In this document: in pieces, positions 6,299 to 62,112 of the stretch
Numbering within the stretch: position 1 is the stretch's first letter
Layout of the letters: the number at the start of each line of letters is the position of its first letter
Assembly: GCA_027482685.1 (NCBI GenBank)
Contig: JAIXVU010000003.1
Location: forward strand, 38,065 to 102,064
Reading direction: 5' to 3'
Origin: a bacterium
GTDB lineage: Bacteria; Patescibacteriota; Minisyncoccia; Phycocordibacterales; UBA5272
Length of the DNA: 64,000 bases
The notes under the pieces: generated by a model
What the model was told of the DNA's origin: nothing
The model's input: the letters and a program-made list of their open reading frames with translations, nothing else
Databases searched by the model: none
Made by a program: the position numbers and the translations under genes

Positions 6299-6310
6299 CA
6301 GACCACATGG

Positions 6311-28645: not shown

Positions 28646-28801
28646 AATACACTAAGAAGTATAGCTAATGGGATATAGGGTTTTCCATAGTTACACTATA
28701 GACACTTACGAGATACCTGAAAAAAGCACGCACTGAACTTGCATAATAGTGCCTCATTTGGTAGGATGTGTCTACTATTCTATATTTTCAGTTCGATATT
28801 T

Positions 28802-29236
28802 ATGCCAACCATTAGTCAACTTATTAAGAAGCCTCGCGCAAAAGTGATTCGTAAGTCACGCTCTATAGCTATGACGCGAGGATTCAATGCTATTCAGAAT
28901 AAGCCTAATTTTTATGATTCGCCATTTAAGCGTGGTGTATGTATCAAGGTAACAACAACAACCCCAAAGAAGCCTAACTCTGCGCTTCGAAAGATTGCTC
29001 GTGTTCGCCTTACTAACGGTATGGAAGTAACAGCATACATTCCTGGTGAAGGGCACAAGCTACAAGAGCACTCAGTGGTAGTACTTCGTGGCGGACGTGT
29101 GAAGGATCTAGCAGGAGTACGTTACCATATCGTTCGCGGACGCATGGATGCAACACCAGTTGATAAGCGCCGACAGGGACGATCTCTCTATGGAGCAAAG
29201 CGACCTAAGGCAGGAGCAGCAGCACCTAAGAAGTAA
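28802..29236 (+). CDS. rpsL: 30S ribosomal protein S12 (with ~13-aa insertion and basic C-terminal extension)
   Basis: [10 protein letters not shown]...[31 protein letters not shown]...[20 protein letters not shown]. Confidence 0.93.
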
Positions 29237-29375: not shown

Positions 29376-30686
29376 ATGATAAATATGCCGCCATTTAAAC
29401 AAGATCCAACAAACTCATCTCAAACAAATCAAGAGCCATACAGTAAAGCTAATGAAAAACTCGTTCCAGAAGGTCATCAATTTGAAAATCTTAGGAAGAC
29501 TCCAGAAGGTCTACTGTACTCATTATTACCTGACTATCATCCCGTCATTGAGCTAATAGCCAAAAATACAAAAATTACCGAGTCGCAAGCTCGAACTTTT
29601 TTTGAAATTGTTAGAGCGAGAGATGATGTCTATGAATATACCCACCGTAACGAATTCGATTTTGATAACGATGACGATACTTACAAGCACGCTAATTGTC
29701 CACGGAGAGGAAGTGGATTTATTGGTAAGTCGTCTAATTCTATTTCGGGTAAAACAGTGAATGAGAGAATCGACTCTGCAATAGATGAGGAGTGGTCTAG
29801 ACATTACAGGATTAATAGAGATAGAACAGGGGAGCTCAAGGGTTCATTTGATTATCTAAGTAATAATATTTCGAAGAGTTTTTCTGATGCCTTTGAAGCT
29901 GTCTTTGACAATGAGAAAGGGGAGCTTATTTTGGTCGATAAAGGTGATTCCTATGAGTTCAGTTTTAAAGATAAATTAGTAGAAGTTTGTGTCTACGCTG
30001 ATGGAGAGGCTAAGGTTATGGTCGGAAAAGAAGGAGAGAATATTAGTGTGCTATTCAATTATAGTTATACTGGCTATAGTATTCTTAAAAAAGGCGAGTA
30101 TACTTCAAATGACGTTTTTTATTTGGAAACACTCTACAAATCCTTTGAAAGTGCAGTGAGAAACCTCTCAGCAAGTGATAGTCGTCATAATGACTTACGA
30201 AATACTCGAAATTTTGGTTTAGGTCATAAATCTGATATGTTTTTTGAATTGATGGAAGGCGCTAAAGATGAGGAGGATTACTACGCTCGTCAAGAATCGG
30301 TAAAACTATTAGAGTTATTTGGTCTGAGATTTGATAATCATTTTAGAAGTAAGTTAAGGAAAATAAGACTTACTATGCGTGACCTGCGTAGAACTGGTCT
30401 TGATAATTTTGATGCAATTGATTCGAAGGATTTGTTTGCATCAGAAGAACTCACTTCTTTCTTCGAAGAGAATAAAAAATTGACCGAAGGTTTTGAGTTT
30501 GATGTTGTTATTCTAAATAAGCAAGAACAATCCGTTGTCAAGATGGTGCAAATTTTACAAACGAATACGAACAGAAACTCATCTCGATATAACAAACCAG
30601 ATGATGAAATGGGGATCGTTTACATGACAGAAGAAGAATTTAACAAATTTGCTGAATACACAAGGACAAATTATTTAAAAGCATAG
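29376..30686 (+). CDS. hypothetical 436-aa D/E/N/K-rich protein inserted between rpsL and rpsG
   Basis: ORF only; no recognisable domain; AT-rich; preceded by terminator-like hairpin after rpsL and followed by hairpin GAAACAAAAGC-tt-TGCTTTTGTTTC at 30862-30890. Confidence 0.45.
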   Translation: MINMPPFKQDPTNSSQTNQEPYSKANEKLVPEGHQFENLRKTPEGLLYSLLPDYHPVIELIAKNTKITESQARTFFEIVRARDDVYEYTHRNEFDFDNDDDTYKHANCPRRGSGFIGKSSNSISGKTVNERIDSAIDEEWSRHYRINRDRTGELKGSFDYLSNNISKSFSDAFEAVFDNEKGELILVDKGDSYEFSFKDKLVEVCVYADGEAKVMVGKEGENISVLFNYSYTGYSILKKGEYTSNDVFYLETLYKSFESAVRNLSASDSRHNDLRNTRNFGLGHKSDMFFELMEGAKDEEDYYARQESVKLLELFGLRFDNHFRSKLRKIRLTMRDLRRTGLDNFDAIDSKDLFASEELTSFFEENKKLTEGFEFDVVILNKQEQSVVKMVQILQTNTNRNSSRYNKPDDEMGIVYMTEEEFNKFAEYTRTNYLKA

Positions 30687-30929: not shown

Positions 30930-31400
30930 ATGCGAAGAAAAGTTAAAAATCGAAATATAGTAGGACCAGACGGAAAGTACAACTCTGTAAAGGTTGGAAA
31001 GTTTATTAACTATGTGATGATTGGAGGTAAGAAGTCAATTGCGCAGGATATTGTGTATGGTGCCTTTGATGTAATTAAAGAAAAGATGAAAGTTGAAGAC
31101 CCTCTTGAAATCTTCAATCAAGCACTTAATAACGCAGGGCCTCTTACGGAAGTTCGCTCACGCCGTATCGGAGGCGCTAACTACCAAGTGCCACGTGAAG
31201 TACGTGAAGAGAGGCGCTTCATGCTCGCACTTCGCTGGATACTAGAAGCTGCAAATAACAAGAAGGGTAAGGCAATGCGCCTTAAGCTCGCGGATGAACT
31301 CATGGCAGCTGCAAATAACGAAGGTAGTGCTGTGAAGAAGAAAGAAGATACTCACAGAATGGCAGAAGCAAACAAGGCATTTGCACACTTTGCATGGTAA
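30930..31400 (+). CDS. rpsG: 30S ribosomal protein S7
   Basis: [39 protein letters not shown] typical uS7. Confidence 0.93.
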
Positions 31401-34148: not shown

Positions 34149-34464
34149 TAAATCGCGAATCTACTTTGTCGAGCGCATGTTTTTGTCAGTCGCCGTAGGT
34201 CTACTACGTCTTCCTCCAAAAACATGCGCTCTTCGCGTATCTTCATTGATGTATTATTTTTTATAAATTCTGAGGGAATTAGTATAAATGGAAATACAAT
34301 AAACGACGCCTACGGCGTCGTTTATTGTATGTATAGTATATCCACAGAACGTAAAGTTGACTTTACGTACGCACTCTATATACTATGTTAAGTGTGCTTT
34401 ACATTTGAAAAAGCACCTCATGAATACATTTACTAAGATACTAAAAATAACTAAAGATATTATT

Positions 34465-35520
34465 ATGAAAAAAATTATAGGAGTCAGCATACTTGTAACA
34501 TCACTTACACTTATGAATGCAAGTGCTATGAATGACATGAATTATGGTTCGCAAAAAGAAAAGAAGAATGAGTACAAGAAGTTTGAAAAGCATGAGAGTA
34601 ACTCACAAGGACTTGGAAAATTTACCTCTTCAGTAATGAAGCGAACAAAGGATAACGCTGGAGGAATGAGACTTATGTCACAAGATGTTGTGACTAATGT
34701 CGTACGAACACCAGGTCTCTCCACTCTTGGAGCAGCGGTACAGGCAGCAGGTCTTGTAGACACACTTAAAGGAACTGGGCCATTCACAGTATTTGCTCCA
34801 ACAAATCGTGCATTTAACGCACTTCCAGCAGGAACAGTTGCTAACCTTCTCAAGCCAGAGAACAAGAAACAGCTTACTGATATCTTGACCTATCACGTAG
34901 TTCCTGGAATCTACACTTCAGATGATATTAAAGATGGTATGACATTAACAACGGTTCAAGGGGCAACACTTCTCTTTACAATACGAAACGGACAAGTCTT
35001 TATTAATGGCAAAGCAACCGTAGTCGCACCAGATGTTATTACTTCAAATGGAGTGATTCATGTGATCGGTAGTGTACTTCTCCCACCTGCACAACCAGTT
35101 GCACAGGCACCTGCGAAGGATATTATTGATACCGCCGTATCAGTGCCAGCATTTTCTACTCTTGTAACAGCCGTACAGACAGCTGGTCTTGTAGATACAT
35201 TAAAGGGAACAGGCCCATTCACGGTATTTGCTCCAGACAATGCAGCGTTTAATGCACTTCCTGAAGGAACTGTCGCTAACCTTCTCAAACCAGAGAACAA
35301 GGCAACTCTTACAGGTATTCTCACGTACCACGTTGTACCTGGTCTTCTTAAGGCATCTGATCTAAAAAATGGTCAAGTACTTACCACGGTAGCAGGTAAA
35401 ACTCTTACTGTCACCATAGCAAACGGTCAAGTATTGATAAACGGTATACGTGTTGCAACTCCAGATGTATTGACATCAAACGGCGTTGTTCATGGTATAG
35501 CTGGTGTACTTCTCCCGTAG
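34465..35520 (+). CDS. secreted protein with two tandem fasciclin (FAS1) domains
   Basis: signal peptide MKKIIGVSILVTSLTLMNASA; duplicated TVFAPTNRAFNALP..TVANLL..LTYHVVPG FAS1 motifs (internal ~400-bp DNA repeat). Confidence 0.75.
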   Translation: MKKIIGVSILVTSLTLMNASAMNDMNYGSQKEKKNEYKKFEKHESNSQGLGKFTSSVMKRTKDNAGGMRLMSQDVVTNVVRTPGLSTLGAAVQAAGLVDTLKGTGPFTVFAPTNRAFNALPAGTVANLLKPENKKQLTDILTYHVVPGIYTSDDIKDGMTLTTVQGATLLFTIRNGQVFINGKATVVAPDVITSNGVIHVIGSVLLPPAQPVAQAPAKDIIDTAVSVPAFSTLVTAVQTAGLVDTLKGTGPFTVFAPDNAAFNALPEGTVANLLKPENKATLTGILTYHVVPGLLKASDLKNGQVLTTVAGKTLTVTIANGQVLINGIRVATPDVLTSNGVVHGIAGVLLP

Positions 35521-35634
35521 TTATTCGCGTTGTGTATAAAGTATGTACCCATAAAAGTATAGAAAGCTATACTTTTGTGGGTATTATACTGTATATACTA
35601 TACATGAATATTATTTAAGACAGCACTATTAAAT

Positions 35635-35832
35635 ATGAACAATGATGTAATGCACTTACGGCAAAAAAAAGGATGGACACAAGAAGAACTAGCTCAAAGA
35701 GTTCATGTCAGCAGGCAGACCATTATTTCTGTAGAAAAAGGGAATTATATTCCTAGTTTACTACTAGCACTTCATTTAGCAGAAGAGTTTGGTGTTTCGG
35801 TGGAAAAGCTTTTTTGGGTTAAAAAAAAGTAG
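35635..35832 (+). CDS. XRE-family helix-turn-helix transcriptional regulator (YozG-like)
   Basis: LRQKKGWTQEELAQRVHVSRQTIISVEKG HTH_XRE. Confidence 0.7.
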   Translation: MNNDVMHLRQKKGWTQEELAQRVHVSRQTIISVEKGNYIPSLLLALHLAEEFGVSVEKLFWVKKK

Positions 35833-35874
35833 TATAATAATATACACGATTTACGTGTTACTACTATTTAGCAT

Positions 35875-36240
35875 ATGCAAAAGACATTTTATGCAGAGGT
35901 TACTCTTTTAACATTACTTAGTACTGTTTTGCTTTTCTTGCTTAACCCTTTTGACATGATGATGCAAATCATGCTCTCAGTAGGAGTTGTAGCGCTATTA
36001 GTGATTTTATATATTACAAAGTTTATTATTATTTGGCGTGAAAAAGATCAAGATGAGCGTGATGCAAGCCATAGATTTTATTCCTCGTGGGTATCTTACG
36101 CTGTAACTTCGGTATTGTTATTTGTCGGTATTGTTGTGGAAGGTCTATCAGGGAATGTTAATACATGGCTTATTATTGCGTTTTCTGGATTACTTATTTC
36201 TAAGTTATGCGCACTTGTTTATTTGAGGATATATAAATAG
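35875..36240 (+). CDS. small multi-TM membrane protein (commonly paired with XRE regulator)
   Basis: 3-4 hydrophobic helices, ORF only. Confidence 0.45.
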   Translation: MQKTFYAEVTLLTLLSTVLLFLLNPFDMMMQIMLSVGVVALLVILYITKFIIIWREKDQDERDASHRFYSSWVSYAVTSVLLFVGIVVEGLSGNVNTWLIIAFSGLLISKLCALVYLRIYK

Positions 36241-36302
36241 TCGTAGGCATCTGTTGATAACACATGAGGTGTATATAAGTACTTTTAGTATACTAAAGCA
36301 TA

Positions 36303-37466
36303 ATGAAAAATCTAGTTCGTATACTTTTCCCCTTAGCCCTAGTTATATATGTTAATGCTGTGTACGCTCAAATGCCGGTCACAACATCATCTGATCAGGT
36401 CCAGATAATAAGACCACAAGAGGTTTCTTCTATCATTGTTGCCGATGTTAGCCTGACTGATGTTACATTCAAACGAGAATCTGATAACAAGATTACAGGT
36501 AGTTTCTCTCTCGTAAGCGAAATGGGAAAGCAAAATGATATAGTTTACGGAATGCATGTTATTGACGGTATGGGTAATATCGTAGATGCGTCCTCTCTAG
36601 GTAAAGTTGCAACTATACGTGAAGGGGAGATAGTCCGACGCAACTTTTCATACTCTATTCCTCCATATATATCAGGGGATAACCTTTCATTTGATCTCGT
36701 CGCAGAGACTACTGGAGGACTTCCTCTCGGGTCGCAAAAGCTACTACAAAATGTTTCCATCCCAGGAGTAGCTTCACTCCTTACATGTACAAATAAAAAT
36801 AGACAAGAGATATCTTGTGTTTCTACTATAGATACAACCCTTGTTATCGGGTATCATGTAGCATCTCCGCTTGGAAAAAACATCGTAAATAAAGAGCTTC
36901 CAGTACGAAAAAATACACCAACACCTCTCCCGGTTACATCAATTCCACCAGGAAGATATTACGTAGACGTTTTTACAAAAGATGGTAACGGCCATGCTCT
37001 TGCTTCATTTGTGGTACAAGGCTCATACGGAAATATTTTGAATACATCTATTTCTGAACTATCAGAAGGTAAGATTCTTGTAATTACAACGGTAAATGCT
37101 TCTCCTTCAAAAGGCATACAAGTTAAAAATACCATCACAGATGACAGCGGTAGAATGTGTACATCTGATCAGGTTGATGCAAGTACTTTTTTTGCAAGAC
37201 AAGAATTTCTGACTGATTGTAGGAAAGGTGCTGTTATTACCACCCTCCTCTCATCATCTGGGGTAGTGTTAAGTAGCTCTACTAATCCTTTCGATATACA
37301 GCGATATGTACAGCAATCTACAACTTCCCCATTAATTACTGAAAAAAATACAACATCTTTACGGCCTTCGCCATATCAACAGATTGCCATAGGCTTGTTT
37401 GTTGGTATTATTGCTGTAACATTCTTTTCTTTTATGAGACGTGTACGTGTGAAAGAATCATTATAA
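36303..37466 (+). CDS. hypothetical cell-surface protein (signal peptide + C-terminal TM anchor)
   Basis: N-terminal signal (LFPLALVIYVNAVYAQ), C-terminal IAIGLFVGIIAVTFFSFMRRVRVKE anchor. Confidence 0.45.
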   Translation: MKNLVRILFPLALVIYVNAVYAQMPVTTSSDQVQIIRPQEVSSIIVADVSLTDVTFKRESDNKITGSFSLVSEMGKQNDIVYGMHVIDGMGNIVDASSLGKVATIREGEIVRRNFSYSIPPYISGDNLSFDLVAETTGGLPLGSQKLLQNVSIPGVASLLTCTNKNRQEISCVSTIDTTLVIGYHVASPLGKNIVNKELPVRKNTPTPLPVTSIPPGRYYVDVFTKDGNGHALASFVVQGSYGNILNTSISELSEGKILVITTVNASPSKGIQVKNTITDDSGRMCTSDQVDASTFFARQEFLTDCRKGAVITTLLSSSGVVLSSSTNPFDIQRYVQQSTTSPLITEKNTTSLRPSPYQQIAIGLFVGIIAVTFFSFMRRVRVKESL

Positions 37467-37479
37467 GATATTTTTATAT

Positions 37480-38124
37480 ATGACACATACTTACTATAGA
37501 TATATTCGACGAAACAACTTAATTGCACTTGTGATTGCATATACGGTATTTTCACTCTTATCTTTTTCACATGCGCAAGCGCTTACTCAGTATACTTACC
37601 TCATCTCTCCGTCAAGTGGTGAATTTGCTTGGACATGTAGAACAACGTCCAATCCGGACAGATCTTCATATCTTCCTGGGCAAACTGCAACCATAGTCGT
37701 GAGTGGCTCAATTATGTATGATGCAGGAGCTCCAACATCAGGTACCGGCAACTGTCTTGTATATCTTTTTAATAATACAAGTAATACTGGACCAGCATTT
37801 GATACAGAAGCAACTTCATATGGATCAACAATGATAGCAAATACTGGAACTTTCCCAGCATCTGGCCCTATATCTCGTACATTTAGTGGTAGTTATTCGT
37901 TTACTGTGCCTGCAAGCATGTCTCCTGGATCACATACTGTACGTTTTCTTACAACTGCAGTAGGTGGAACTGTAGGTGGAGGGTCGGCTTCAGGTGTTCC
38001 TTCCGTCACAAATCCGCTCTCTTTTACAGTAACGTCTCCAGTACCACCTCCAACCGTAATACTTTTTTTCTCATTCGGGCAAATCCTCAATCTCTTTACT
38101 GAAAAGCTTTTTGCAAGTTCTTAG
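37480..38124 (+). CDS. hypothetical secreted Ser/Thr/Gly-rich protein
   Basis: signal peptide ending SHAQA; low-complexity S/T/G-rich body. Confidence 0.4.
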   Translation: MTHTYYRYIRRNNLIALVIAYTVFSLLSFSHAQALTQYTYLISPSSGEFAWTCRTTSNPDRSSYLPGQTATIVVSGSIMYDAGAPTSGTGNCLVYLFNNTSNTGPAFDTEATSYGSTMIANTGTFPASGPISRTFSGSYSFTVPASMSPGSHTVRFLTTAVGGTVGGGSASGVPSVTNPLSFTVTSPVPPPTVILFFSFGQILNLFTEKLFASS

Positions 38125-46842: not shown

Positions 46843-47118
46843 ATTGTTTATCTGCTTTGTTAAGAGAAGTTTCTCTCAGCCAGTGTACAATGGGTACGTT
46901 TCTACCGAAAACTTTCTTTCTTCACATAGCTAAAATAATTTTTGATCTTTTTGATTAAGAAGCTATATTTTCCTTTGTTCTATTGAAGTTTCAATTAGGG
47001 TAATAAAAAGAGGATGTCGCAAACATCCTCTTTTTATTTGTCATTTCTACATGAAGTAGGGAGTTTTGAAGACAGGCAACACTTGACAAGTTTATATAAA
47101 TACTGTAGGATAGGGCCC

Positions 47119-48504
47119 ATGAAAACAGGAATTAAAAACATCGTCATCGGGCTTAGTTTTTTGGGTATTTTTACTAGTTTTAGTGGTTTTGCACAAGCGG
47201 GGTATTTTAATACAACCCCAATTGAGCAGTGTGATGTTGTTATTGTAAGTAACCTATCTTTTGGTTCACGCAATCAAGATGTTCTTACTCTACAGCAGTT
47301 TCTAGCTCGCGCTGGGTACCTTCACGCTACTCCTAATGGGTACTTTGGGCATGGTACCAGATCTGCTGTACAGGCTTTTCAAGCTGACAACTACATTCGT
47401 CAGACAGGAACAGTGGGAGCTGAAACCCGTAATGCTCTAAATGAAAGACTTTGCGATGCACGGGTATCACGCTACTCATTTAACGATGATTACTATGATT
47501 ATGCGTCTGGGGTAACATATGTTGATGGATATGATCCATATGTAACTGTCGTATCTCCTACTCCTCAAATACCAGCCGTGTATGCAACTCCACAGGCAAA
47601 TATAGCAACTCGTAATACAAATGTCTCAGTTGCTACAAACAGAACTGCAGACATTACAAGTGGTTCAGTTGTCTCTCCTCTTGTTGCTTCTACTCAAACA
47701 AATTTTGGCAACCTTCCTTCTCCTGCTAGTGTTGATAGAACATCTATTGTCTTTAATCCAAGTATTGGTTATACAACTGTCATTACTCCAAAGGTGCAGT
47801 CATTAACTATCCTTACTCCGCTTTCATATACTGTATACAATGAAGGTGATACTGTGTCTCTCACATGGAGAACACAAGGACTATCACAAACACAGTTTGT
47901 AGTGCTTCTTGAAAATAAGAATACTCGTCAGAGTCGTACAGTTGCCGTTACATCTTCGATGAATGCCTCGTTTACTCTTACTAAGGATCTTCTTGATGCT
48001 GTATGTAATGGACCATGTGATGCTAATGCTCAAGCAGCATTTGGTATCGTTATTACTACTCCTGTTACTGATCTTGCGGGTACTGTAACGACTTTCAGAT
48101 CAACCCTTTCACCTATTGCAATTAAGCGTCCTTTTGCAGGGACTGGTATTGGGGCAGTATCTCTTAGTATTAAGAATCCTGTTGCTTCAAATGAAGTAGT
48201 TAAACTTTTCCTTAACTTACCTGGTATTAGTAATGTTGATGCGTATACTAACTATTCATTTAAGATTCGCGCAACATGTATTCCTGGTGTACAAGTGAGA
48301 CTAGGTGGCGTTGAATGTGGTCAAGACTTTATAATTCCAATCGGCGCTGTTTACTTCCAAAATCAAATTCCTGTAGCAATTAATAATACAACATGGTTCA
48401 GACAAGACGTTGCGTTTACCCTTACTGTTATAAATGCTCAGGGGCAAGTAGTGGGACAAGCAGAAACAAAGACTACAGTAAACGGCGCACCGTTTAGTTG
48501 GTAG
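47119..48504 (+). CDS. secreted protein with peptidoglycan-binding (PG_binding_1-like) domain and long Thr/Ser/Val-rich region
   Basis: signal peptide (IVIGLSFLGIFTSFSGFAQA); LTLQQFLARAGYL...GYFGHGTRSAVQAFQ...GTVGAETRNAL motif; terminator hairpin at 48524-48552. Confidence 0.55.
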   Translation: MKTGIKNIVIGLSFLGIFTSFSGFAQAGYFNTTPIEQCDVVIVSNLSFGSRNQDVLTLQQFLARAGYLHATPNGYFGHGTRSAVQAFQADNYIRQTGTVGAETRNALNERLCDARVSRYSFNDDYYDYASGVTYVDGYDPYVTVVSPTPQIPAVYATPQANIATRNTNVSVATNRTADITSGSVVSPLVASTQTNFGNLPSPASVDRTSIVFNPSIGYTTVITPKVQSLTILTPLSYTVYNEGDTVSLTWRTQGLSQTQFVVLLENKNTRQSRTVAVTSSMNASFTLTKDLLDAVCNGPCDANAQAAFGIVITTPVTDLAGTVTTFRSTLSPIAIKRPFAGTGIGAVSLSIKNPVASNEVVKLFLNLPGISNVDAYTNYSFKIRATCIPGVQVRLGGVECGQDFIIPIGAVYFQNQIPVAINNTTWFRQDVAFTLTVINAQGQVVGQAETKTTVNGAPFSW

Positions 48505-48565
48505 TAGATAATCTGTGATATAAAAAAACGACGCGCATCCGCGTCGTTTTTTTATTGATATAGGT

Positions 48566-49003
48566 TTATGCAAGTGCTGTTTTAACAAGAAACATAACTG
48601 CCGTTACCGCACCAACTAGTAACGTTCCCCAAAGGATATCAACGATGACAATAGACCAAGGATATTCTTTGAATACTGCGAGATTGGTGAAGTCATAAAA
48701 TGCATATAGTACAAATCCCAGAAGCGCACCGTATAGAAATGCATTTAACGTCGTAGATGCACGAGATAGTGCAAAGACCCATATACCAAGTATTCCGACG
48801 ATATACACAAGGGGAATTGCGGGAAGGTAAGGCACAAGCGATCCTTCGACTATGTTTGCATGCGCTTTTAATCCGTCTAAGTAGAACGTTTTTGCGATTT
48901 TGGCTAGCCAGACATAGTCAAGAACAGTAAAAGTAATAATACCTGCAAGCGATGTGAGTATAATTGATATCATATATGTAAAGTGTAGCATACAAAGTAA
49001 CAT
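48566..49003 (-). CDS. DUF2177-like small membrane protein
   Basis: 4 TM segments; ORF only; start possibly at internal ATG (MISIIL). Confidence 0.45.
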   Translation of the reverse strand: MLLCMLHFTYMISIILTSLAGIITFTVLDYVWLAKIAKTFYLDGLKAHANIVEGSLVPYLPAIPLVYIVGILGIWVFALSRASTTLNAFLYGALLGFVLYAFYDFTNLAVFKEYPWSIVIVDILWGTLLVGAVTAVMFLVKTALA

Positions 49004-52170: not shown

Positions 52171-52773
52171 ATGTATTCTCTTACCAAAGACGAGCTACAA
52201 TTTTTAAAGAAACTTACTACTCCGATCAAAATCCAAGACTATCTTGATAGTATAGATTTCAATTACGAGAAGAACGGCGAGACCTGTATGTCCCCACGCC
52301 GCGTAATAAAAGAGGGTAAGGCACATTGTATAGAAGGGGCGTTGCTTGCAGCTCTTGCTCTTATGGTTAACGGTGAGCGACCACTACTTCTTAATTTGAA
52401 AGTAAGACATGATGATTATGATCATGTTGTAGCACTCTATAAATGTAACGGATATTGGGGGGCAATCAGTAAGACCGCACACTCAGTCTTGCGCTTTCGC
52501 GATCCGGTATACAAGAGTGTGCGAGAACTTGCAATGTCATATTTTCACGAGTATTTTTTGGTAAGTGGTGGTGAAAAAACCATGCTTGGGTATTCAAAGC
52601 CTATTAATCTTAAAAGATACGGAACAAGTTGGATAACAGAAGAGAAAGATCTTTGGACTATCGCAGAGAAGATATTTGATGCACCGATTACAAAAGTGAT
52701 TCCAAAGGGAAATGAAAAGTATATTAAGCCTGCGACAGAACTTGAACGGAAAGCCTCGGACATAAAAAGCTAA
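52171..52773 (+). CDS. putative transglutaminase-like/papain-fold cysteine peptidase-type protein
   Basis: GKAHCIEGALLAALALMVNG ... DYDHVVALYKCNGYWGAISK resembles Cys...His...Asp core of transglutaminase-like superfamily (eye alignment only). Confidence 0.35.
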   Translation: MYSLTKDELQFLKKLTTPIKIQDYLDSIDFNYEKNGETCMSPRRVIKEGKAHCIEGALLAALALMVNGERPLLLNLKVRHDDYDHVVALYKCNGYWGAISKTAHSVLRFRDPVYKSVRELAMSYFHEYFLVSGGEKTMLGYSKPINLKRYGTSWITEEKDLWTIAEKIFDAPITKVIPKGNEKYIKPATELERKASDIKS

Positions 52774-52793
52774 TAAGGTTATATACTACATAC

Positions 52794-53579
52794 ATGTATT
52801 TTGAATCTAGTAAAAATAACAATAGTCCAATAATTTGTAACGTGCCTCATTCCGGGACTCTGATACCAGCAGAATATGAATCTGATTTTATTCTACAGGA
52901 GGACGATTTAGAGCAAGAGATTTTGTATATGGCGGATAATTATACTGACGAGCTATACAAGGAATTATTAAATATTTCAAGTTATGTACAATCTACCGTT
53001 AGTAGAATTTTGGTTGATATAGAACGATTTGAAGATGAAGAGGATGAGCCAATGTCAAAAGTCGGCATGTCAGCTTTTTACACAATGACAAGTGAAGGTG
53101 AGCTGCTCAGAACCATTACAGATGAAAGGAGGATTGAGCTTGAGAAAATATATAAAAATTATCATGACACTTTCACTGATTTAGTTACTGTTGCGCTTTC
53201 TAATTATGATACGGCTATTATTGTAGACTGTCATTCGTTTGCATCCATCCCTAGAATATACGAAAGCGATAAAGATGGAGACCGTCCAGATATTTGTATT
53301 GGGGTAGATGAGTACCATACACCAAAAGAGTTAGTAGAAAGGCTCCAAACTAACTTTGGAGAACTCGGATATAGTGTAAAAGTTAACAGTCCTTTTGCAG
53401 GGAGTATTGTACCTGCTCTATATTATCAAAAAGATATAAGAGTGATTTCAGTGATGATTGAAGTCAATAGAAAACTCTATATAGATGAACTAACATTTCA
53501 AAAATCAAAAAATTTTTCTGAAGTCTCAAGGGCTATTTCTCGAGCGGTTATAAAAAGTTTGAACGAGTTTATAAAATAA
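52794..53579 (+). CDS. N-formylglutamate amidohydrolase (FGase) family protein
   Basis: ICNVPHSGTLIP ... IIVDCHSF signature motifs of PF05013 family. Confidence 0.55.
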   Translation: MYFESSKNNNSPIICNVPHSGTLIPAEYESDFILQEDDLEQEILYMADNYTDELYKELLNISSYVQSTVSRILVDIERFEDEEDEPMSKVGMSAFYTMTSEGELLRTITDERRIELEKIYKNYHDTFTDLVTVALSNYDTAIIVDCHSFASIPRIYESDKDGDRPDICIGVDEYHTPKELVERLQTNFGELGYSVKVNSPFAGSIVPALYYQKDIRVISVMIEVNRKLYIDELTFQKSKNFSEVSRAISRAVIKSLNEFIK

Positions 53580-53580
53580 T

Positions 53581-54043
53581 ATGGGACAAGAACAGCTATC
53601 GGGTCCAGAAAAAATATTTACGAGTGTATCCCCAAAAGAATTTATCAATCAAAGAGATAGATTGCGAGAAGATTTGTTTGCATTTCTTACCCCGCTCACA
53701 GAAGAAGATTATGTAGCAAAAAAGACAAAGTTGTTTTTATCACAGGATTTACAATCAGGTTTCGGTGTTAATCCAGATGGAGAGCTTATATCTGTATTTG
53801 CTTTAGAAAAACAAAGAGGAAGGCTTCTTGTTGCTGAGGCAAGAAATCAGGGGGGCTAAATATTTAAGTTGCATGGGTGACTATTTACTAGAGCTATATT
53901 CTGAGTTTGATTTTTCCCCAGTAGAAATTTTGAAATGGGATAACAGGTTTACCCCTAAAAATTGGAATTATGAGAGATTTGGAGCTCCAAATATTTATGA
54001 AATGAGATTAAAAAATCCTTATGCGGATAAATTTGAGGGGTAA
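53581..54043 (+). pseudogene. hypothetical gene split by frameshift in a G6 homopolymer tract (two overlapping ORFs 53581-53859 and 53828-54043)
   Basis: frame 1 ends ...NQGG* at CAGGGGGGCTAA (G-run 53850-53855); deleting one G fuses to frame 2 (AKYLSCMGDYLL...) giving a ~154-aa product. Confidence 0.5.
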
Positions 54044-56387: not shown

Positions 56388-57158
56388 ATGAAATATAATA
56401 TCAAACTTAAAAACGAAGCCGACATCAAGATACTGCGTGAAAGTGGTAAGCGACTTGCTCGTGTTCTACAAGCGGTTGCTAAAGAAGTAAAACCTGGTGT
56501 AACAACAGGATATTTGAATGATTTTGTATATAAGATGATAACTGATATGGGGGATGAGCCTGCATTCCTTAACTACAAACCATTCGGAGCAGCATATCCA
56601 TATCCAGGAAGTATTTGTATCTCAGTTAACGATGAAGTTGTACATGGTATAGGAGGAGACAGGGTGCTACAGGAGGGGGATATTGTAGGACTAGATGGTG
56701 GAGTAAAACATAAAGGCATGATATCAGATAGTGCAATCACTGTAGCAGTTGGGAAGATTAGTGAAGAGGATGCAGAATTAATGCGGGTGACCAAGGAAGC
56801 TCTCATGGCAGGTATTCACGCTGCAGTTGCAGGAAATTACGTTAATGATATTTCAAAAGCAATTGAGAAATCTATTCCAAAAAAATACGGCGTTGTAAAA
56901 ATACTCTCAGGGCATGGGGTAGGGTACAAAGTTCACGAAGAACCATACGTTCCTAATTTTGACGACGGAGTGAAGGGTCCTAAGCTTGTGCCAGGACTCG
57001 TGCTTGCAATTGAGCCAATGGTTAATCTTGGAACTGATGAAGTGTATCTCGCAGACGATGGGTACACATTTATCACCAAGGATAACAAAAAGTCAGCTCA
57101 TTTTGAACATAGTATTCTTATTACAGATAGTAAACCAGAGATTCTAACAATCATATAA
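56388..57158 (+). CDS. map: type I methionine aminopeptidase
   Basis: VVHGIGGDRVLQEGDIVGLD, HGVGYKVHEEP, metal-binding D/H/E pattern. Confidence 0.88.
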   Translation: MKYNIKLKNEADIKILRESGKRLARVLQAVAKEVKPGVTTGYLNDFVYKMITDMGDEPAFLNYKPFGAAYPYPGSICISVNDEVVHGIGGDRVLQEGDIVGLDGGVKHKGMISDSAITVAVGKISEEDAELMRVTKEALMAGIHAAVAGNYVNDISKAIEKSIPKKYGVVKILSGHGVGYKVHEEPYVPNFDDGVKGPKLVPGLVLAIEPMVNLGTDEVYLADDGYTFITKDNKKSAHFEHSILITDSKPEILTII

Positions 57159-57204
57159 TTTCTCCACTAGTTCATCATCCTTATTGCCTATATACTAGGT
57201 ACAT

Positions 57205-59931
57205 ATGAATTCTACATTTAGTACCCCCGAAGAAGAGATAGCATTTTTACGTAGTCAAATATCTACAAAGATAGAAAAGTCAAAAGGTTTTGAGGGGCGA
57301 TTTAATGAAACTGATCACGCGCGCGAAGTTATTCGTGATTATAAAGAGACGAAGCTTGAACAAGTTATTCCTGTTGCTTCCCAGATCACAGAAGGTGAGA
57401 AGCATCGCTTGCTTGAGTGGCTCGCGCCCAAGGATACTGATCAGCAAGTGAGCATGCTATCACAGATTGCTGCAGAGAAAGGACTCAAAAATGCTTTTTC
57501 TGTTGCGGAGAATTTAAATGATCCACAGGTAGAAGACGATTTTGATAGATTTCTCGTACAGTATCTCATCTCAGGTCATGAGTTTAAGAATGATCTTTCA
57601 AAAGATGAATGGAAAGCGCTACATATGAAGCTCTTTGAAGTGATACTTCCAACCGCTCTTGAGGGTCAGGTCAAACAAGCAAAAGAGATGATGGCTCTTA
57701 TGGAACAGTGGTATGCGTCCATGCAAGCACTCGCTAGTGATGCGTCTAACAAGGAGAAAAATTATTATTCTCTTGAGCTAAGTGTTTCTAACAATACTAC
57801 CGTGACGTCATTTTATTGTGCGGTGCATGTGGACTATGCAGCGTTATTTGAAAAAGTTGTACTTGGAGTATTCCCAACTGCAAAAGTTATAGAGCAAAAA
57901 GAAGATTATAATATATTCCATAATCACGCTATAACAGCAGCATCATATGCTGTACCATCTACCCATCCATCGCTTCCGATTACAACATACAACGAAGTAG
58001 AGGGCGACCCGATGGCGCTCATCATTTCATCATTTATTAAAATAGCAAAGGATAAGGAAGGTCTCGCACTTCAGATACTTATCCGTCCATCAGGTGATGT
58101 GTTTGCCCGTAAATACGGTGAGATGTTAGAAGACCTTCGTAAAGGTGAGACATTTAAGCGTGTTGTTGATAAACAAAGCTTTGTTAAAGAGGCATTCTTT
58201 CAAATAGGGGAAGCGCTCTTTTCTAGTCCAAAAAAAGATGACGATACTGCACATAAAGAGGAAAAGAAAACTACGTTTATGGACGAAAACGCTACAAAGT
58301 TCGTCCAAGAGAAATTATCTAAGACTATCCTTGAGGCCAATATCAGAATAGTGGCATCTGCTGAGTCGTTACCAAGAGTGCAAAAGATACGAGATGACTT
58401 AGAAGCATCGTTTGCACAATTTACTAAAGTCCACGGTAATAGCATCACCTGGAAAGAGGTAGAAGGGAATAAACAAAAGGCACTACTTCACCGTTTCTCA
58501 TATCGTCTCTGGAATGATGATGAGAGTTACCCGCTTAACGTCGCAGAACTTGCTTCTCTCTTCCATTTCCCAATGTTATCTAAGGATGTTGCGAACGTGA
58601 AAGAGCAGACATATACTAAGAGCCCAGCGCCTATCGACCTCTCGCCAAACGGTATTTTACTTGGTGTTAATACTACTCGTGGGGAGGCAACAGAGATACA
58701 CTATGATAGAGAGGATCGTGTGCGTCATATGTATGTTATCGGACAGACAGGAACTGGTAAGACAGTGCTCTTGAAGAATATGATTGTCCAAGATATCAAA
58801 AATGGTGACGGTTGTTGTTTCATCGATCCGCATGGTAGCGATATTGAAGATATTTTGGCAAATATTCCACCAGAACGTGCCGGAGATGTTATCTATTTTG
58901 ACCCGTCATATATGCCACGACCGATGGGGCTTAATATGCTTGAGTATGATAGAACTAAACCTGAAACAAAAACGTTTGTTGTTAACGAGCTCTTGGGTAT
59001 TTTTGATAAGTTATTTGATATGAAGACCTCCGGCGGTCCAGGGTTTGAGCAATACTTCCGTAACGCAACACTTCTTGTGATGGAGCACCCAGAATCGGGT
59101 AATACACTCCTTGAGATTGCCCGTATTTTTTCTGATAAAGATTTTAGAGACTATAAGTTATCAAAATGTAAGAATCCTCTCATCCTACAATTCTGGCAAA
59201 ATGCTGAGAAGACATCAGGTGATCAAGGTCTACAAAATTGGACACAGTATGTTAACAGTAAGTTCGATGTCTTTCTCTCAAATGATATTATGCGTCCAGT
59301 TATCGCACAGGAGCGTAGTGCGTTTAACTTCCGAGAGATTATGGATACTAAGAAAATACTTTTAGTTAATCTTGCGAAAGGGCGGTTGGGAGATAAGAAC
59401 GCAGAGCTACTCGGCCTCATCATTGTTGGTAAGTTTTCTCAAGCCGCACTTTCTCGTGTTGATCAGCCGGATGTTAGCAAGCGACCAGACTTCTATCTCT
59501 ACATAGATGAGTTCCAGAATGTTACAACACCAGCAATTGCAAGCATTTTATCAGAAGCACGTAAGTACCGACTTTCCCTTAACATTGCGCACCAGTACAT
59601 CTCGCAGTTAACAGAGGATATTAAAGGTGCTGTGTTTGGTAACGTTGGATCTATGGCAGTATTTCGTATATCGCCAGAGGATGCGCAGTACCTTGAGTCT
59701 AAGTTCGCTCCGACATTTACAGCATCAGATATTATGAAAATAGAGAATAGACATGCGTATCTAAGCCTCCTTGCCAATGGTACCCCGAGGAAACCTTTTG
59801 ATATTGACGTGCTCCCACCACCAAAAGGAGAGATTGCGCGTATCAGTCAGCTTAAGGAGTTAAGTTATCTTACTTATGGTCGCCCAGCAGATGAGGTGAA
59901 CGAAGAAATCATGAGAAAGTATAATATGTAG
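57205..59931 (+). CDS. large soluble protein: ~480-aa unknown N-terminal region + HerA/TraD/VirD4-like (DUF87-type) P-loop ATPase domain
   Basis: Walker A YVIGQTGTGKTVLLKNMI, Walker B FYLYIDEFQNV, CFIDPHGSD; no N-terminal TM helices. Confidence 0.6.
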   Translation: MNSTFSTPEEEIAFLRSQISTKIEKSKGFEGRFNETDHAREVIRDYKETKLEQVIPVASQITEGEKHRLLEWLAPKDTDQQVSMLSQIAAEKGLKNAFSVAENLNDPQVEDDFDRFLVQYLISGHEFKNDLSKDEWKALHMKLFEVILPTALEGQVKQAKEMMALMEQWYASMQALASDASNKEKNYYSLELSVSNNTTVTSFYCAVHVDYAALFEKVVLGVFPTAKVIEQKEDYNIFHNHAITAASYAVPSTHPSLPITTYNEVEGDPMALIISSFIKIAKDKEGLALQILIRPSGDVFARKYGEMLEDLRKGETFKRVVDKQSFVKEAFFQIGEALFSSPKKDDDTAHKEEKKTTFMDENATKFVQEKLSKTILEANIRIVASAESLPRVQKIRDDLEASFAQFTKVHGNSITWKEVEGNKQKALLHRFSYRLWNDDESYPLNVAELASLFHFPMLSKDVANVKEQTYTKSPAPIDLSPNGILLGVNTTRGEATEIHYDREDRVRHMYVIGQTGTGKTVLLKNMIVQDIKNGDGCCFIDPHGSDIEDILANIPPERAGDVIYFDPSYMPRPMGLNMLEYDRTKPETKTFVVNELLGIFDKLFDMKTSGGPGFEQYFRNATLLVMEHPESGNTLLEIARIFSDKDFRDYKLSKCKNPLILQFWQNAEKTSGDQGLQNWTQYVNSKFDVFLSNDIMRPVIAQERSAFNFREIMDTKKILLVNLAKGRLGDKNAELLGLIIVGKFSQAALSRVDQPDVSKRPDFYLYIDEFQNVTTPAIASILSEARKYRLSLNIAHQYISQLTEDIKGAVFGNVGSMAVFRISPEDAQYLESKFAPTFTASDIMKIENRHAYLSLLANGTPRKPFDIDVLPPPKGEIARISQLKELSYLTYGRPADEVNEEIMRKYNM

Positions 59932-60125
59932 TAACTATTAGTGATATGTATTTAGACTTGATAATTTTTATTCTTACGATATGCGTGTACCTTCCAATAG
60001 CGGGGGTACTTCTTTACGCATGGCATAAATTTGGATACAAAGAGCATGCAGTAGATATTGCGCGCAGAATATTTCTCGGAGGGTCTGCCATCTTGTTCTT
60101 TTTTATGTTATTTATGTAATCATGT

Positions 60126-60662
60126 ATGCCGGTATATCCTTTTTTAAAAGATGGAGAAGAAATAGTTGCTGTAGCTCGTAAACATTGGATAGTATATGTT
60201 AAGCAAGCATTACTTCATTTGTATGGATGTGCTGTATGTATAGCGCTTGCAGTATTTCTTATCTCTAGAAAAGGATCTACAGTTACTCCAGTGGAAGGTA
60301 TTACACCAGTTGCGCTTATTCTTATAGCATTTGTTATTCTTTTCTGGTCTAGTTTTTTTTATTTTTGGACGAAGAATTATTTTGATGTATGGTATATCAC
60401 AACTTCACATATTGTTGCAGTAAATCAAAAGAATATATTCGAGAGAGAAGAGTCGTTTATGGAGCTTACCAAAATACAAGATGTGTCTTTTGAAAAAGAG
60501 GGAATTATTGCAACATACTTTGGGTATGGAAAACTGCAGGTTCAAACAGCCGGGTCTATTCAAGAATTTGCTATCGACTACATAAGTAATGTAGAAACTG
60601 TTGCTCACCGTATCATGGACTTACGTGATAACGCACAAGGGAAAAATAACATCTCGCTATAA
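60126..60662 (+). CDS. bacterial PH-domain (bPH_2/YdbS-like) membrane protein
   Basis: two N-terminal TM helices followed by DVWYITTSHIVAVNQ...KLQVQTAG bPH_2-like segment. Confidence 0.5.
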   Translation: MPVYPFLKDGEEIVAVARKHWIVYVKQALLHLYGCAVCIALAVFLISRKGSTVTPVEGITPVALILIAFVILFWSSFFYFWTKNYFDVWYITTSHIVAVNQKNIFEREESFMELTKIQDVSFEKEGIIATYFGYGKLQVQTAGSIQEFAIDYISNVETVAHRIMDLRDNAQGKNNISL

Positions 60663-60726
60663 TTTAAAACGAGGCTTTTTAGAGCCACTTGCTTACACAA
60701 TTATATGGGTATATACTTTTTAGCAT

Positions 60727-61170
60727 ATGCCACAAGAAAATATAAGAAATAGACAAGAGGAAGCACCTTCGGCGGATGAATCACAAATAGCTGGCTACAA
60801 AGATGCTGCAAATGTCGAAAGGCTAAATGTAAAGTTTGAAGGGATGCCGGAAGAACAAGAATTGAATGAAGCTATAATTAATGTTAGTGACTATCTTAAA
60901 AAGTCTCAAGATATTCTTGCAGAAATAAAAAGAATTAAGTCTAACATTCTTGAATTTGGTACGGTAGAAATCGGAAGTGAAGATTTTAATCATATTGTAG
61001 AATCTTTGAGAGTCGCAGGTGCGACTCATGGTGATGAAACAAAACTAGCAAAAAGATTAGTCAGTGGTGACGTGGATAGTTCATTAGAAGCGGAATATAC
61101 TGGACATGTAAAATCTCATGAAGATCATCTCATTAGACTGCAAACAAACTTAAAAAATTTGAAAAAGTAA
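60727..61170 (+). CDS. hypothetical acidic coiled-coil protein
   Basis: ORF only. Confidence 0.35.
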   Translation: MPQENIRNRQEEAPSADESQIAGYKDAANVERLNVKFEGMPEEQELNEAIINVSDYLKKSQDILAEIKRIKSNILEFGTVEIGSEDFNHIVESLRVAGATHGDETKLAKRLVSGDVDSSLEAEYTGHVKSHEDHLIRLQTNLKNLKK

Positions 61171-61488
61171 AACTCTAAGCATGTCAGTAGCCAAACTTAT
61201 ACATTTAAAATCCAATTACAATAGATTCAAATAAATGTAGAGAAGTGGTGCAGAAAAATGGGGGCGAGAACGCTAGTAAAGAATTCTTCGTGAAGAAAAA
61301 AGCGGATCGACATTTAAGAAATATGAAGATTATAAGCATGCGACACACGAAGAAAGAGGTGGAATAGCTCTGGAGAATGATACCATAGCTGAAATTTTGA
61401 AGCTAATTTGTTATGATTAGCTCAACTTCGCGGTAAAGAACCGCAAGATATTGCAGGTAAATCTGAGGATGTTTAAGTTATAAAAAAT

Positions 61489-61516
61489 AAAAGATGATAC
61501 ATATGTATCATCTTTT
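61489..61516. terminator. terminator palindrome AAAAGATGATACATATGTATCATCTTTT downstream of efp
   Basis: perfect 12-bp stem with flanking A/T runs. Confidence 0.6.
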
Positions 61517-61530
61517 ATTTTTACCTATAT

Positions 61531-62112
61531 TTATTTTGTGCGTTCCACGTACTCGCCAGTTTCAGTGTTCACGATAATTTTTTCACCAGCTTCTATGAAA
61601 AGGGGGGTTGTAACCTGTGCTCCTGTTTCAAGGGTTACTAACTTACCTCCACCGCTTGCGGTATTGCCTTTGATTGCAGGAGGCGCTTCTTTTACTTCAA
61701 ATGTCATCTTAATTGGAAGTGTTACACCGATAAACTTCTCCTCGTCATCTAATGTGAATATTTTTACATCAACGAGAGTATTTTCTTTTAAGTATTTTGT
61801 TTGGTCACCGAGAATTTCACCGCTTATCTCAAATCTCTTTGCACGGTCTTTTGGATCGCAGAACCAGTACTCACCTTTATTAGCAAACAGGAACATTGCT
61901 TCACGTCGTGATATCTCTGCTTCTTCTGCAGTATCAGATGCATGAAATGTTCCTGGAACAACTTTTCCATTAAGCATATTACGCATACGGACTTGGTTCT
62001 GCGGTTTACGTTTTTGTGTACGAGCTACATGAGACTCGAGAATCTCAAAAGGGACATCGTCAACTAGTATAAACTTTCGTGGTTTAATTTCATCATAATC
62101 AAGTGTTGCCAT
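61531..62112 (-). CDS. efp: elongation factor P family protein (divergent N-terminal loop)
   Basis: C-terminal GNTASGGGKLVTLETGAQVTTPLFIEAGEKIIVNTETGEYVERTK strongly EF-P-like; the canonical KPGKG loop is replaced by TQKRKPQNQ. Confidence 0.75.
   Translation of the reverse strand: MATLDYDEIKPRKFILVDDVPFEILESHVARTQKRKPQNQVRMRNMLNGKVVPGTFHASDTAEEAEISRREAMFLFANKGEYWFCDPKDRAKRFEISGEILGDQTKYLKENTLVDVKIFTLDDEEKFIGVTLPIKMTFEVKEAPPAIKGNTASGGGKLVTLETGAQVTTPLFIEAGEKIIVNTETGEYVERTK

Follow-up and report, generated by a model that had tools for sequence, protein, structure and literature searches.

A chromosomal core ATPase of Patescibacteria that combines a VirB4-like docking domain with a VirD4/TrwB-like motor domain

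A large part of bacterial diversity falls within the Patescibacteria. These bacteria rely on host cells, and a T4SS is essential in them where this has been tested. In one member of the group (GCA_027482685.1, contig JAIXVU010000003.1) the gene map is followed by a gene for a 908-aa ATPase rather than by ribosomal genes. What is this protein, does its gene belong at this position, and what might it do? The stretch of DNA analysed, referred to here as the window, is 64,000 nt long (64 kb), and all positions are window coordinates.

The locus downstream of map

A first-pass annotation of the window reported ORFs of 908, 178 and 147 aa on the + strand directly after map, and all three are present. 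Its gene list was incomplete, however, as it missed a conserved ORF of 57 aa, which we term tm57. The features of the locus are as follows.

56388..57158, + strand: map (methionine aminopeptidase), Peptidase_M24 in the gene calls
57205..59931, + strand: ATPase gene, 908 aa, directly after map
57205..57609, + strand: ATPase residues 1-135, N-terminal helical extension derived from a formerly separate partner protein
57610..58539, + strand: ATPase residues ~136-445, DUF8128 (PF26449), VirB4 N-terminal-domain-like fold
58540..59931, + strand: ATPase residues ~446-908, P-loop NTPase domain of T4CP (VirD4/TrwB/TraD) type, as judged from sequence
58741-58764, + strand: Walker A of the ATPase, residues 513-520, GQTGTGKT
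59494-59514, + strand: Walker B of the ATPase, residues 764-770, YLYIDEF
59946..60119, + strand: tm57, 57 aa, two TM helices, from the ORF and its hydrophobic segments
60126..60662, + strand: bPH_2 membrane protein, 178 aa, two TM helices and a bacterial PH domain (Pfam PF03703)
60727..61170, + strand: acidic orphan ORF, 147 aa
61483..61522, no strand: 18-bp perfect hairpin between the + strand block and the convergent efp, a terminator-like site

The hairpin is likely a bidirectional terminator. No terminator-like site was found in the 46-nt gap between map and the ATPase gene. The start of tm57 lies 14 nt past the ATPase stop and its end 6 nt ahead of the bPH start. These short gaps, together with a gene order that is kept in 18 loci, suggest that the ATPase, tm57 and bPH genes are likely co-transcribed.

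The absence of ribosomal genes after map was correctly noted in the first pass: infA, rpmJ, rpsM, rpsK, rpsD and rplQ were found neither in the window nor in 83 related loci by a search that did detect rpsL and rpsG, its positive controls. The ATPase gene is not a one-off intrusion into the operon: this genome has its ribosomal superoperon broken up at no fewer than five places, and placement of the gene behind map is the ancestral state in the lineage (see below).

The genes downstream of the ATPase differ in how widely they are kept. The hydrophobic segments of tm57 span residues 1-27 and 38-57. The ORF is retained in 18 related loci, including 11 genome and 6 metagenome loci from the close clade, where it directly precedes the bPH gene (median identity 49%). 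It has no Pfam match, and VirB3 is absent from its matches even at E <= 1. The 178-aa protein is, as first described, a PH-domain membrane protein (PF03703, E 7.6e-6, 26.5 bits, cutoff 22), with two hydrophobic helices at approximately residues 25-50 and 52-83 preceding the PH domain. In all close-clade loci tm57 and bPH sit between the ATPase gene and efp. Both are absent from the ATPase neighbourhood in a Paceibacteria clade of ~50% identity, in which the ATPase likewise lacks a TM helix; a role of tm57 and bPH as membrane anchors of the ATPase is therefore weakly supported. The 147-aa protein is acidic, as noted earlier (pI 5.1), and has no match in Pfam, NCBIfam or PADLOC. Relatives differ in the length of the slot between bPH and efp, and no related locus contains a homologue of this ORF, which consequently is not part of the conserved block and probably lies outside the system. 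The three-gene module first proposed is therefore not supported: only the ATPase is kept broadly, tm57 and bPH are confined to a single clade, and the acidic ORF stands alone.

Domain architecture of the ATPase

The Walker A and Walker B motifs and a CFIDPHG motif (residues 538-544) were found where the first pass had placed them. In Pfam searches the C-terminal domain matched TrwB_AAD_bind (26.6 bits, cutoff 20.5) and TraG-D_C (23.4 bits, cutoff 22); the DUF87 score of 18.7 fell below the cutoff of 23.2. Among 46 diverse family members, TrwB_AAD_bind was matched by 42, TraG-D_C by 38 and DUF87 by 37, and the Walker residues, D768 E769, R786 K787 and Q797 are invariant. A profile of the family, when compared with PDB sequences, gave TrwB as the best match (E 2.9e-7) and also retrieved DotL (1.6e-5) but no VirB4 chain. 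Matches to more specific models fell well short of their cutoffs: 49.8 bits against 366 for the TraD model TIGR03743 (E 1.8e-13), 34.9 against 647 for TIGR03754, and 31.9 against 250 for the CD1115 family model. Walker A and Walker B are separated by approximately 245 residues that are predicted, with low confidence, to be largely helical, as are residues 586-700; the model of the whole protein was of low quality (pLDDT 51). By these sequence criteria the C-terminal half is a P-loop NTPase of the TraD/VirD4/TrwB type. The first-pass assignment holds for this part. HerA and DUF87 gave weak matches.

The first ~480 residues had been thought to contain no recognizable motif. Precomputed Pfam annotation, however, assigns PF26449 (DUF8128) to the exact window protein and to nearly all of its homologues, and this region has the fold of the VirB4 N-terminal docking domain. 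The ATPase is therefore a hybrid, with a VirB4-like docking domain joined to a VirD4/TrwB-like nucleotide-binding domain.

Upstream of DUF8128 the window protein departs from the wider family, whose members lack the N-terminal extension and match only from residue ~140 onward. Residues 1-135 are predicted to be helical (pLDDT ~62-84). In other CPR classes a separate protein of 149-167 aa is encoded immediately before the ATPase, and its C-terminal part shows homology to this extension (BLASTP E 5e-9; phmmer E 6e-6). Since this region corresponds to a separate upstream gene elsewhere in CPR, the window ATPase is a gene fusion. The first-pass observation that it lacks a TM helix stands: in every 19-residue segment the hydrophobicity stays below that of such a helix, the highest Kyte-Doolittle mean being 1.38. 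Family members of ~790-860 aa from other CPR classes carry a single N-terminal TM helix.

Distribution, conservation and alternative readings

No fewer than 594 GTDB species genomes contain a relative of the ATPase. In addition, 5,033 50%-identity clusters score E <= 1e-30, and the hits span Paceibacteria, Doudnabacteria, Uhrbacteria, Azambacteria and others. In 65 of the 74 related loci with enough flanking sequence, a map homologue on the same strand precedes the ATPase gene, and the map-adjacent position is held across 65 species-level genomes; this position is ancestral in the lineage. Identity of the ATPase to its relatives is 72% in the close clade and 50% in the far clade, compared with 76% and 58% for SecY, 84% and 54% for Map, and 58% and 33% for Adk. 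The ATPase is conserved about as strongly as SecY, Map and RplO, and its gene is an old, apparently vertically inherited chromosomal core gene of Patescibacteria. The conservation of position in related Patescibacteria agrees with one option raised at the outset, a CPR-specific machine that shares its transcript with the translation apparatus.

These observations bear on the possibility that the ATPase is a conjugative coupling protein, or another part of a mobile element integrated after map. Such an origin is suggested by its T4CP Pfam domains, by NCBI product names, [quoted passage not shown] among them, and by IMG/VR contigs that carry relatives (28-39% identity) of the C-terminal domain only, next to serine recombinase, DNA methylase, PLD nuclease and M23 peptidase genes. 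Yet the locus has no relaxase, integrase, T4SS genes, tRNA target or repeats, and neither in the window nor in the other loci examined was a T4SS component, relaxase or pilin gene found near the ATPase. The GC content of the gene equals that of the surrounding sequence, its divergence follows that of SecY and Map, its position is stable across species, and its TraD score is far under the NCBIfam cutoff. We looked both for a nearby cognate relaxase and for absence of the block from close relatives, and found neither. A mobile-element origin is largely refuted and we regard it as extremely improbable.

A defence function was also proposed, in which the protein would be an anti-phage ATPase, HerA-partnered or MADS-like, and the small downstream proteins its effectors or sensors. 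PADLOC returned mad8 (E 8.5e-13) and weak HerA matches, DUF87 is recognized in most of the family, and small partner genes do follow the ATPase. These PADLOC matches, however, span only the P-loop core, with none for the neighbouring genes; other MADS components and nuclease, SIR2 or DUF4297 partners are lacking, and outside one clade the downstream genes are not kept with the ATPase. A near-universal, syntenic, slow-evolving gene, apparently inherited vertically and conserved to the level of core genes, is the opposite of what defence islands display. We consider a defence role highly unlikely.

The gene neighbourhood in other CPR classes points in another direction. In 5 of 6 such loci the ATPase gene has housekeeping neighbours, with cysS-dnaB(-ybaB-recR) on one side and gtrA-dnaX on the other. 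T4CPs are DNA-dependent ATPases, as established for TrwB. With the core-like conservation and the missing TM helix of the window protein, this setting would suit a cytoplasmic DNA motor for replication, repair or segregation, comparable to FtsK or HerA, derived from a T4CP by exaptation and independent of secretion. The authors of PMC12102498 (Quinonero-Coronel et al. 2025) raise exaptation of T4CP homologues to another function and report that in S. epibionticum the t4cp homologue is not essential for epibiotic growth, while the T4SS is. On the other hand, most family members have an N-terminal TM helix, the N-terminal domain has the fold with which VirB4 docks on membrane components, and in one relative canonical FtsK and RecA are encoded separately close to the ATPase gene. 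Gene neighbourhood is moreover weak functional evidence in tiny, dense CPR genomes. A secretion-independent DNA motor is possible but, on balance, doubtful.

A proposed role and comparison with known systems

The reading we favour, tentatively and at somewhat less than an even chance, is that the protein is a core VirB4/VirD4-hybrid translocation ATPase of Patescibacteria, acting as a membrane motor or receptor tied to a T4SS-like apparatus. It would be a ring-forming, presumably hexameric, member of the VirB4/VirD4 (type IV secretion) superfamily. In most CPR classes one N-terminal TM helix would tether it to the membrane, and just before it lies the gene for a small acidic partner; in the Paceibacteria lineage of the window the helix appears to have been lost, the partner is fused to the N-terminus, and the gene closes the secY-adk-map operon. 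The protein may serve, on the cytoplasmic side of the membrane, as an ATP-driven motor or substrate receptor in the transport of DNA or protein, most likely within a chromosomal patescibacterial T4SS-like apparatus encoded elsewhere. Docking would involve the VirB4-like domain, much as VirB4 docks on VirB3/VirB8, with the likely co-transcribed tm57 and bPH as candidate membrane receptors in the close clade. Several observations weigh against this reading: no T4SS, relaxase or pilin genes were found close by in the loci examined, few of the T4CP homologues in PMC12102498 are near virB4, the t4cp homologue of S. epibionticum is dispensable although the T4SS there is not, and tm57 shows no sequence match to VirB3.

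More broadly, DUF8128 ATPases as a whole might be phylum-wide, essential-grade type IV-like motors with a VirB4 docking domain and a VirD4 motor, a generalization that is credible but rather unlikely. They might represent a form intermediate between the two families of T4SS ATPases that has survived, or supply the "missing" coupling protein for the T4SS that is essential to Patescibacteria; another possibility is that they drive a new housekeeping route of DNA or protein import or export that underlies the epibiotic lifestyle.

Orphan T4CP-like ATPases are encoded by nearly every Patescibacteria genome. What is new for one such family is a VirB4-type docking domain, conservation on a par with SecY or Map, a dedicated small partner that is fused in Paceibacteria, and a location within housekeeping operons. 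These findings lead to testable hypotheses on docking partner, cargo and essentiality, and the family is an informative data point for the divergence of VirB4 and VirD4. The annotation "conjugative DNA transfer family protein" is misleading for a non-mobile core gene.

According to PMC12102498, VirD4-type T4CP homologues number 5,713 in 2,918 of 3,035 Patescibacteria genomes, with only 148 of the 5,713 near virB4, and a separate canonical VirB4 is encoded near dnaA/dnaN. To judge from its domain matches, the window ATPase very probably belongs to this set, which likewise consists of VirD4-type ATPases that are near-universal in the phylum and mostly distant from virB4. With a Pfam DUF entry and NCBI names as well, calling the system "undescribed", as first suggested, goes too far. 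In the portion of that paper available to us there is no account of a VirB4-like DUF8128 domain at the N-terminus, of a fusion with the partner, of synteny with map or dnaX, or of how strongly the gene is conserved.

Among other relatives, the 178-aa protein resembles YdbS/YdbT-like bPH_2 membrane proteins in having its PF03703 domain after two TM helices. HerA/DUF87 ATPases share the FtsK-HerA superfamily P-loop with the window protein, but its N-terminal domain is VirB4-like instead of a HAS barrel and it has no NurA or defence partner. VirB4/TrwK has the same two-part plan, an alpha/beta N-terminal domain of ~300-400 aa followed by a RecA-like ATPase domain, and many VirB4 proteins are likewise soluble. 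In contrast to VirB4, the window ATPase is not recognized by sequence models of VirB4 families (TIGR00929 gives 16 bits, where the cutoff is 643; CagE_TrbE_VirB, PF03135, matches none of 46 family members), its ATPase domain is closer in sequence to VirD4, and virB3, virB6 and virB8 do not adjoin it in the neighbourhoods examined. From the T4CPs (VirD4, TrwB of R388, TraD, DotL) it differs in having ~310 residues with the VirB4-NTD fold that separate the anchor position from the nucleotide-binding domain, in lacking a TM helix and nearby relaxase or T4SS genes, in scoring far under the NCBIfam TraD cutoffs, and in being encoded by a chromosomal core gene rather than a plasmid or ICE gene. With these same T4CPs it shares a C-terminal P-loop domain that fits their profiles, and the stretch between its Walker motifs, predicted with low confidence to be largely helical, may resemble their all-alpha domain; the N-terminal TM anchor of T4CPs is present in the wider ATPase family.

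Gene block downstream of map

The gene for the ATPase lies directly behind map and is followed by three smaller ORFs, and a terminator-like hairpin stands between this block and efp.

56388-57158, + strand: map, upstream neighbour of the ATPase gene
57205-59931, + strand: ATPase gene, 908 aa
59946-60119, + strand: tm57, 57 aa, two TM helices
60126-60662, + strand: bPH gene, 178 aa, two TM helices ahead of a bPH_2 domain
60727-61170, + strand: acidic ORF, 147 aa
61483-61522: perfect 18-bp hairpin, terminator-like, between the map-ATPase block and efp
61531-62112, convergent to the + strand block: efp

The first-pass annotation had listed the 908-, 178- and 147-aa ORFs but left off tm57, which is easily overlooked because it is shorter than the usual ORF length cutoffs. 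Intergenic gaps from map through the acidic ORF are 46, 14, 6 and 64 nt in order, a spacing that suggests co-transcription. No terminator-like site is present in the gap between map and the ATPase gene; a predicted terminator-like hairpin at 59987-60009 falls within the tm57 ORF and is probably not functional as a terminator. GC content across the block (0.35-0.41) is that of the window background. The ATPase carries Walker A (GQTGTGKT) at residues 513-520 and Walker B (YLYIDEF) at residues 764-770, and a hydrophobicity scan found no segment in it sufficient for a TM helix. The bPH protein matches bPH_2 at 26.5 bits (cutoff 22). The product of the acidic ORF has a pI of 5.1 and matches no family; neither it nor tm57 has a significant Pfam match at E <= 1, and for tm57 this includes VirB3.

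Full-length ATPase homologues with 71-79% identity number in the hundreds in Paceibacterota MAGs, and in a scan with a single genome for each GTDB species at least 594 genomes encode a relative. Absence of the block from close relatives, which the first-pass annotation had considered, is not seen for the ATPase gene: of the 80 best loci, 74 have enough flank to judge by, and 65 of these 74 have a map homologue upstream in the same orientation, directly adjoining the ATPase gene in 33 of the 65. The tm57 and bPH pair is confined to the 11 closest genome loci (ATPase >= 70% identical) and seven metagenome loci, the only ones found in a metagenome scan with the bPH alignment and all of one clade; wherever present, the pair occupies the interval between the ATPase gene and efp. 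For the ~50%-identity clade (Nomurabacteria, Yonathbacteria and others), ndk follows the ATPase gene in 56 loci. The acidic ORF has no counterpart in any related genome or metagenome locus. The three-gene module originally proposed therefore does not hold, and the conserved unit is an ATPase gene ending secY-adk-map.

Median protein identity in the close clade (relatives with an ATPase ~72% identical) and the far clade (~50%-identity Paceibacteria)
ATPase: close clade 72%, far clade 50%
SecY: close clade 76%, far clade 58%
Map: close clade 84%, far clade 54%
RplO: close clade 78%, far clade 53%
Adk: close clade 58%, far clade 33%

The slow divergence of the ATPase is thus close to that of its housekeeping neighbours. 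Its synteny, composition and evolutionary rate, together with the missing partner genes, disfavour two explanations of the gene: a role in defence, as the first-pass annotation had entertained, is very improbable, and an origin in a conjugative element extremely so.

Interruptions of the ribosomal superoperon

The earlier observation that infA, rpmJ, rpsM, rpsK and rplQ do not follow map was borne out within the window. Searches by phmmer with E. coli query proteins detected none of infA, rpmJ, rpsM, rpsK, rpsD and rplQ in the window and 83 related loci; as a positive control, the same approach recovered rpsL and rpsG at E ~1e-47. This approach replaced hand-written regex motifs for infA, rpmJ, rpsM, rpsK and rpoA, which gave no matches and were too crude. 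The position of the ATPase gene within a conserved operon had been described as unusual; it is less exceptional than it seemed, since the ribosomal superoperon of this genome is broken up repeatedly by non-ribosomal genes.

29376-30686, + strand: 436-aa ORF between rpsL (28739-29236) and rpsG (30930-31400)
34357-38124, + strand: four non-ribosomal genes between fusA and tuf
47014-49003: 496-aa PG_binding_1 protein (+ strand) and DUF2177 membrane protein (- strand), upstream of rpsH
52171-54043, + strand: four genes between rplO and secY

The rpsL-rpsG junction is as a rule tight; the 436-aa ORF found there has no Pfam match. Between fusA and tuf lie, in order, a 387-aa fasciclin-domain protein and ORFs of 121, 387 and 214 aa, of which the 387- and 214-aa ORFs were scanned and have no Pfam matches. 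The rplO-secY insert consists of genes for a transglutaminase-like DUF553 protein and an N-formylglutamate amidohydrolase (FGase), together with two small ORFs; relatives, in which secY follows rplO, have no match to any of these four genes. A 74%-identity relative (loci L002/L003) has a PG_binding_1 gene in the equivalent spot, between rplE and rpsH.

Elsewhere in the window, ComEC is seemingly split into a Competence/DUF4131 membrane gene (23130-24602, + strand) and a metallo-beta-lactamase gene (25320-26270, + strand), and a - strand VTT-domain gene lies between the two. A high-GC stretch at ~6300-7100 (GC 0.51-0.63 against a background of ~0.40) has folding energy z-scores of -8.1 (+ strand) and -4.8 (- strand) and contains one membrane protein gene.

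6311-7090, - strand: 259-aa polytopic membrane protein

Neither this ORF nor the stretch gave a Pfam match, or an Rfam match above noise. The gene may have been horizontally acquired, and a 296-aa ORF overlapping it in another frame looks non-coding.

Domain structure of the ATPase

Matches to TrwB_AAD_bind and TraG-D_C above the Pfam cutoffs in the C-terminal half agree with the initial assignment to the TraD/VirD4-type P-loop NTPases; the NCBIfam TraD, VirD4-like and TrbC models match only locally, far under their cutoffs. Against solved structures, a diverse family profile best matched TrwB (E 2.9e-7) and DotL (E 1.6e-5), with no VirB4 chain among its matches, and TrwB was again the top match of the isolated C-terminal domain. 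Among 46 diverse members, TrwB_AAD_bind is matched by 42, TraG-D_C by 38, DUF87 by 37, T4SS-DNA_transf by 20 and the VirB4 N-terminal families by none. The Walker residues, D768 E769, R786 K787 and Q797 are invariant in the family, and the enzyme is presumably active. Ring assembly and an all-alpha insert are suggested by analogy and by a low-confidence full-length AlphaFold model (pLDDT 51, from 50 close homologues of 71-79% identity).

The DUF8128 region gave nothing significant in Pfam at E <= 1, and a literature search for "DUF8128" found no papers. The N-terminal ~480 aa had been described as lacking a recognisable motif, a description that the DUF8128 assignment supersedes; by sequence, DUF8128 has no relatives beyond its own family. 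Structure prediction, a check that the first-pass annotation had proposed, relates it to VirB4: an AlphaFold2 model of residues 131-500, built from a diverse alignment of 114 sequences (20-78% identity), reached pLDDT 88.4 and pTM 0.84, and TrwK/VirB4 chains took all of the top 14 places among its Foldseek matches (best E 1.3e-6). The ATPase domain contributes at most ~55 query residues to this segment, which places the likeness in the N-terminal domain of VirB4; it is a likeness of predicted structure, at ~8% sequence identity.

Relatives in other CPR classes and a possible role

When 1.84 billion cluster representatives were searched exhaustively with HMMER, 5,033 clusters matched with E <= 1e-30 and 20,031 with E <= 1e-3. 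Full-length relatives are mostly 790-860 aa, and their alignment to the window ATPase begins only at residue ~140. Named members with PF26449 (DUF8128) belong to Doudnabacteria, Uhrbacteria, Azambacteria, Taylorbacteria and "Patescibacteria group"; their annotations read [quoted passage not shown], "DUF87" or "TraM recognition domain-containing protein". The 790-860-aa members start with one hydrophobic helix that has basic residues after it and is a TM anchor; DUF8128 begins immediately behind. On IMG/VR contigs, relatives of the C-terminal domain alone have as neighbours a recombinase, a methylase, a PLD nuclease and an M23 peptidase; the motor domain thus circulates on mobile elements outside CPR too, such viral-contig neighbours being only mildly informative.

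All six loci examined from other CPR classes encode a small charged protein (122-167 aa) upstream of the ATPase, and in four of the six this protein shares homology with the window ATPase over residues ~60-120 of the latter (BLASTP E 5e-9; phmmer E 6e-6). The Paceibacteria form thus originated through fusion of this partner with the N-terminus and loss of the TM helix. Neither the N-terminal extension nor the partner proteins gave significant Pfam matches at E <= 1. Taken together, the domain matches make the window ATPase a hybrid that consists, from the N-terminus onward, of a fused partner, a VirB4-NTD-like domain and a VirD4-like motor domain. Five of the six loci also encode a conserved soluble protein of ~180-216 aa with the motif IEGVFDGQNMIGPD..YPVPANYASKSKLVEGD, located before gtrA(-dnaX) and not always first after the ATPase gene (coordinates within each locus):

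L084, 10639-11178: ~180-216-aa protein
L085, 11287-11892: ~180-216-aa protein
L086, 10708-11301: ~180-216-aa protein
L088, 10275-10889: ~180-216-aa protein
L089, 9556-10206: ~180-216-aa protein

This protein belongs to no Pfam family and did not turn up in the window or the Paceibacteria loci. In five of the six loci the ATPase gene is flanked by cysS-dnaB(-ybaB-recR) and gtrA-dnaX. Such dnaB/dnaX neighbourhoods favour the main rival explanation, a cytoplasmic DNA-handling motor, as does the report that a T4CP homologue of S. epibionticum is non-essential in epibiotic growth, other T4SS genes being essential (PMC12102498); we consider this explanation possible, if rather unlikely. Our tentative preference is for a membrane-proximal, ring-forming translocation ATPase of the core patescibacterial machinery, most plausibly working with a T4SS-like apparatus encoded elsewhere. 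In such a translocation ATPase, docking would be the task of the VirB4-like domain, and in the close clade tm57 and bPH would be candidate membrane receptors replacing the lost TM helix.

That such ATPases exist and are ubiquitous was already known. According to Quinonero-Coronel et al. 2025 (PMC12102498), 2,918 of 3,035 Patescibacteria genomes encode 5,713 VirD4-type T4CP homologues, only 148 of them near virB4, and exaptation to other functions was raised as a possibility. In one Nomurabacteria genome, a second, shorter ATPase-related ORF (locus L083, 774-2267) precedes the map-ATPase pair by ~4 kb, in keeping with the ~2 homologues per genome of that study. Wang et al. 2023 describe an essential T4SS cluster without a recognisable coupling protein (PMC10633639), and a 2025 review gives the same general picture (PMC12857230). 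Four elements are new relative to these three sources, whose available portions do not describe them: an N-terminal domain like that of VirB4, the fusion with the partner, the synteny and how strongly the ATPase is conserved.
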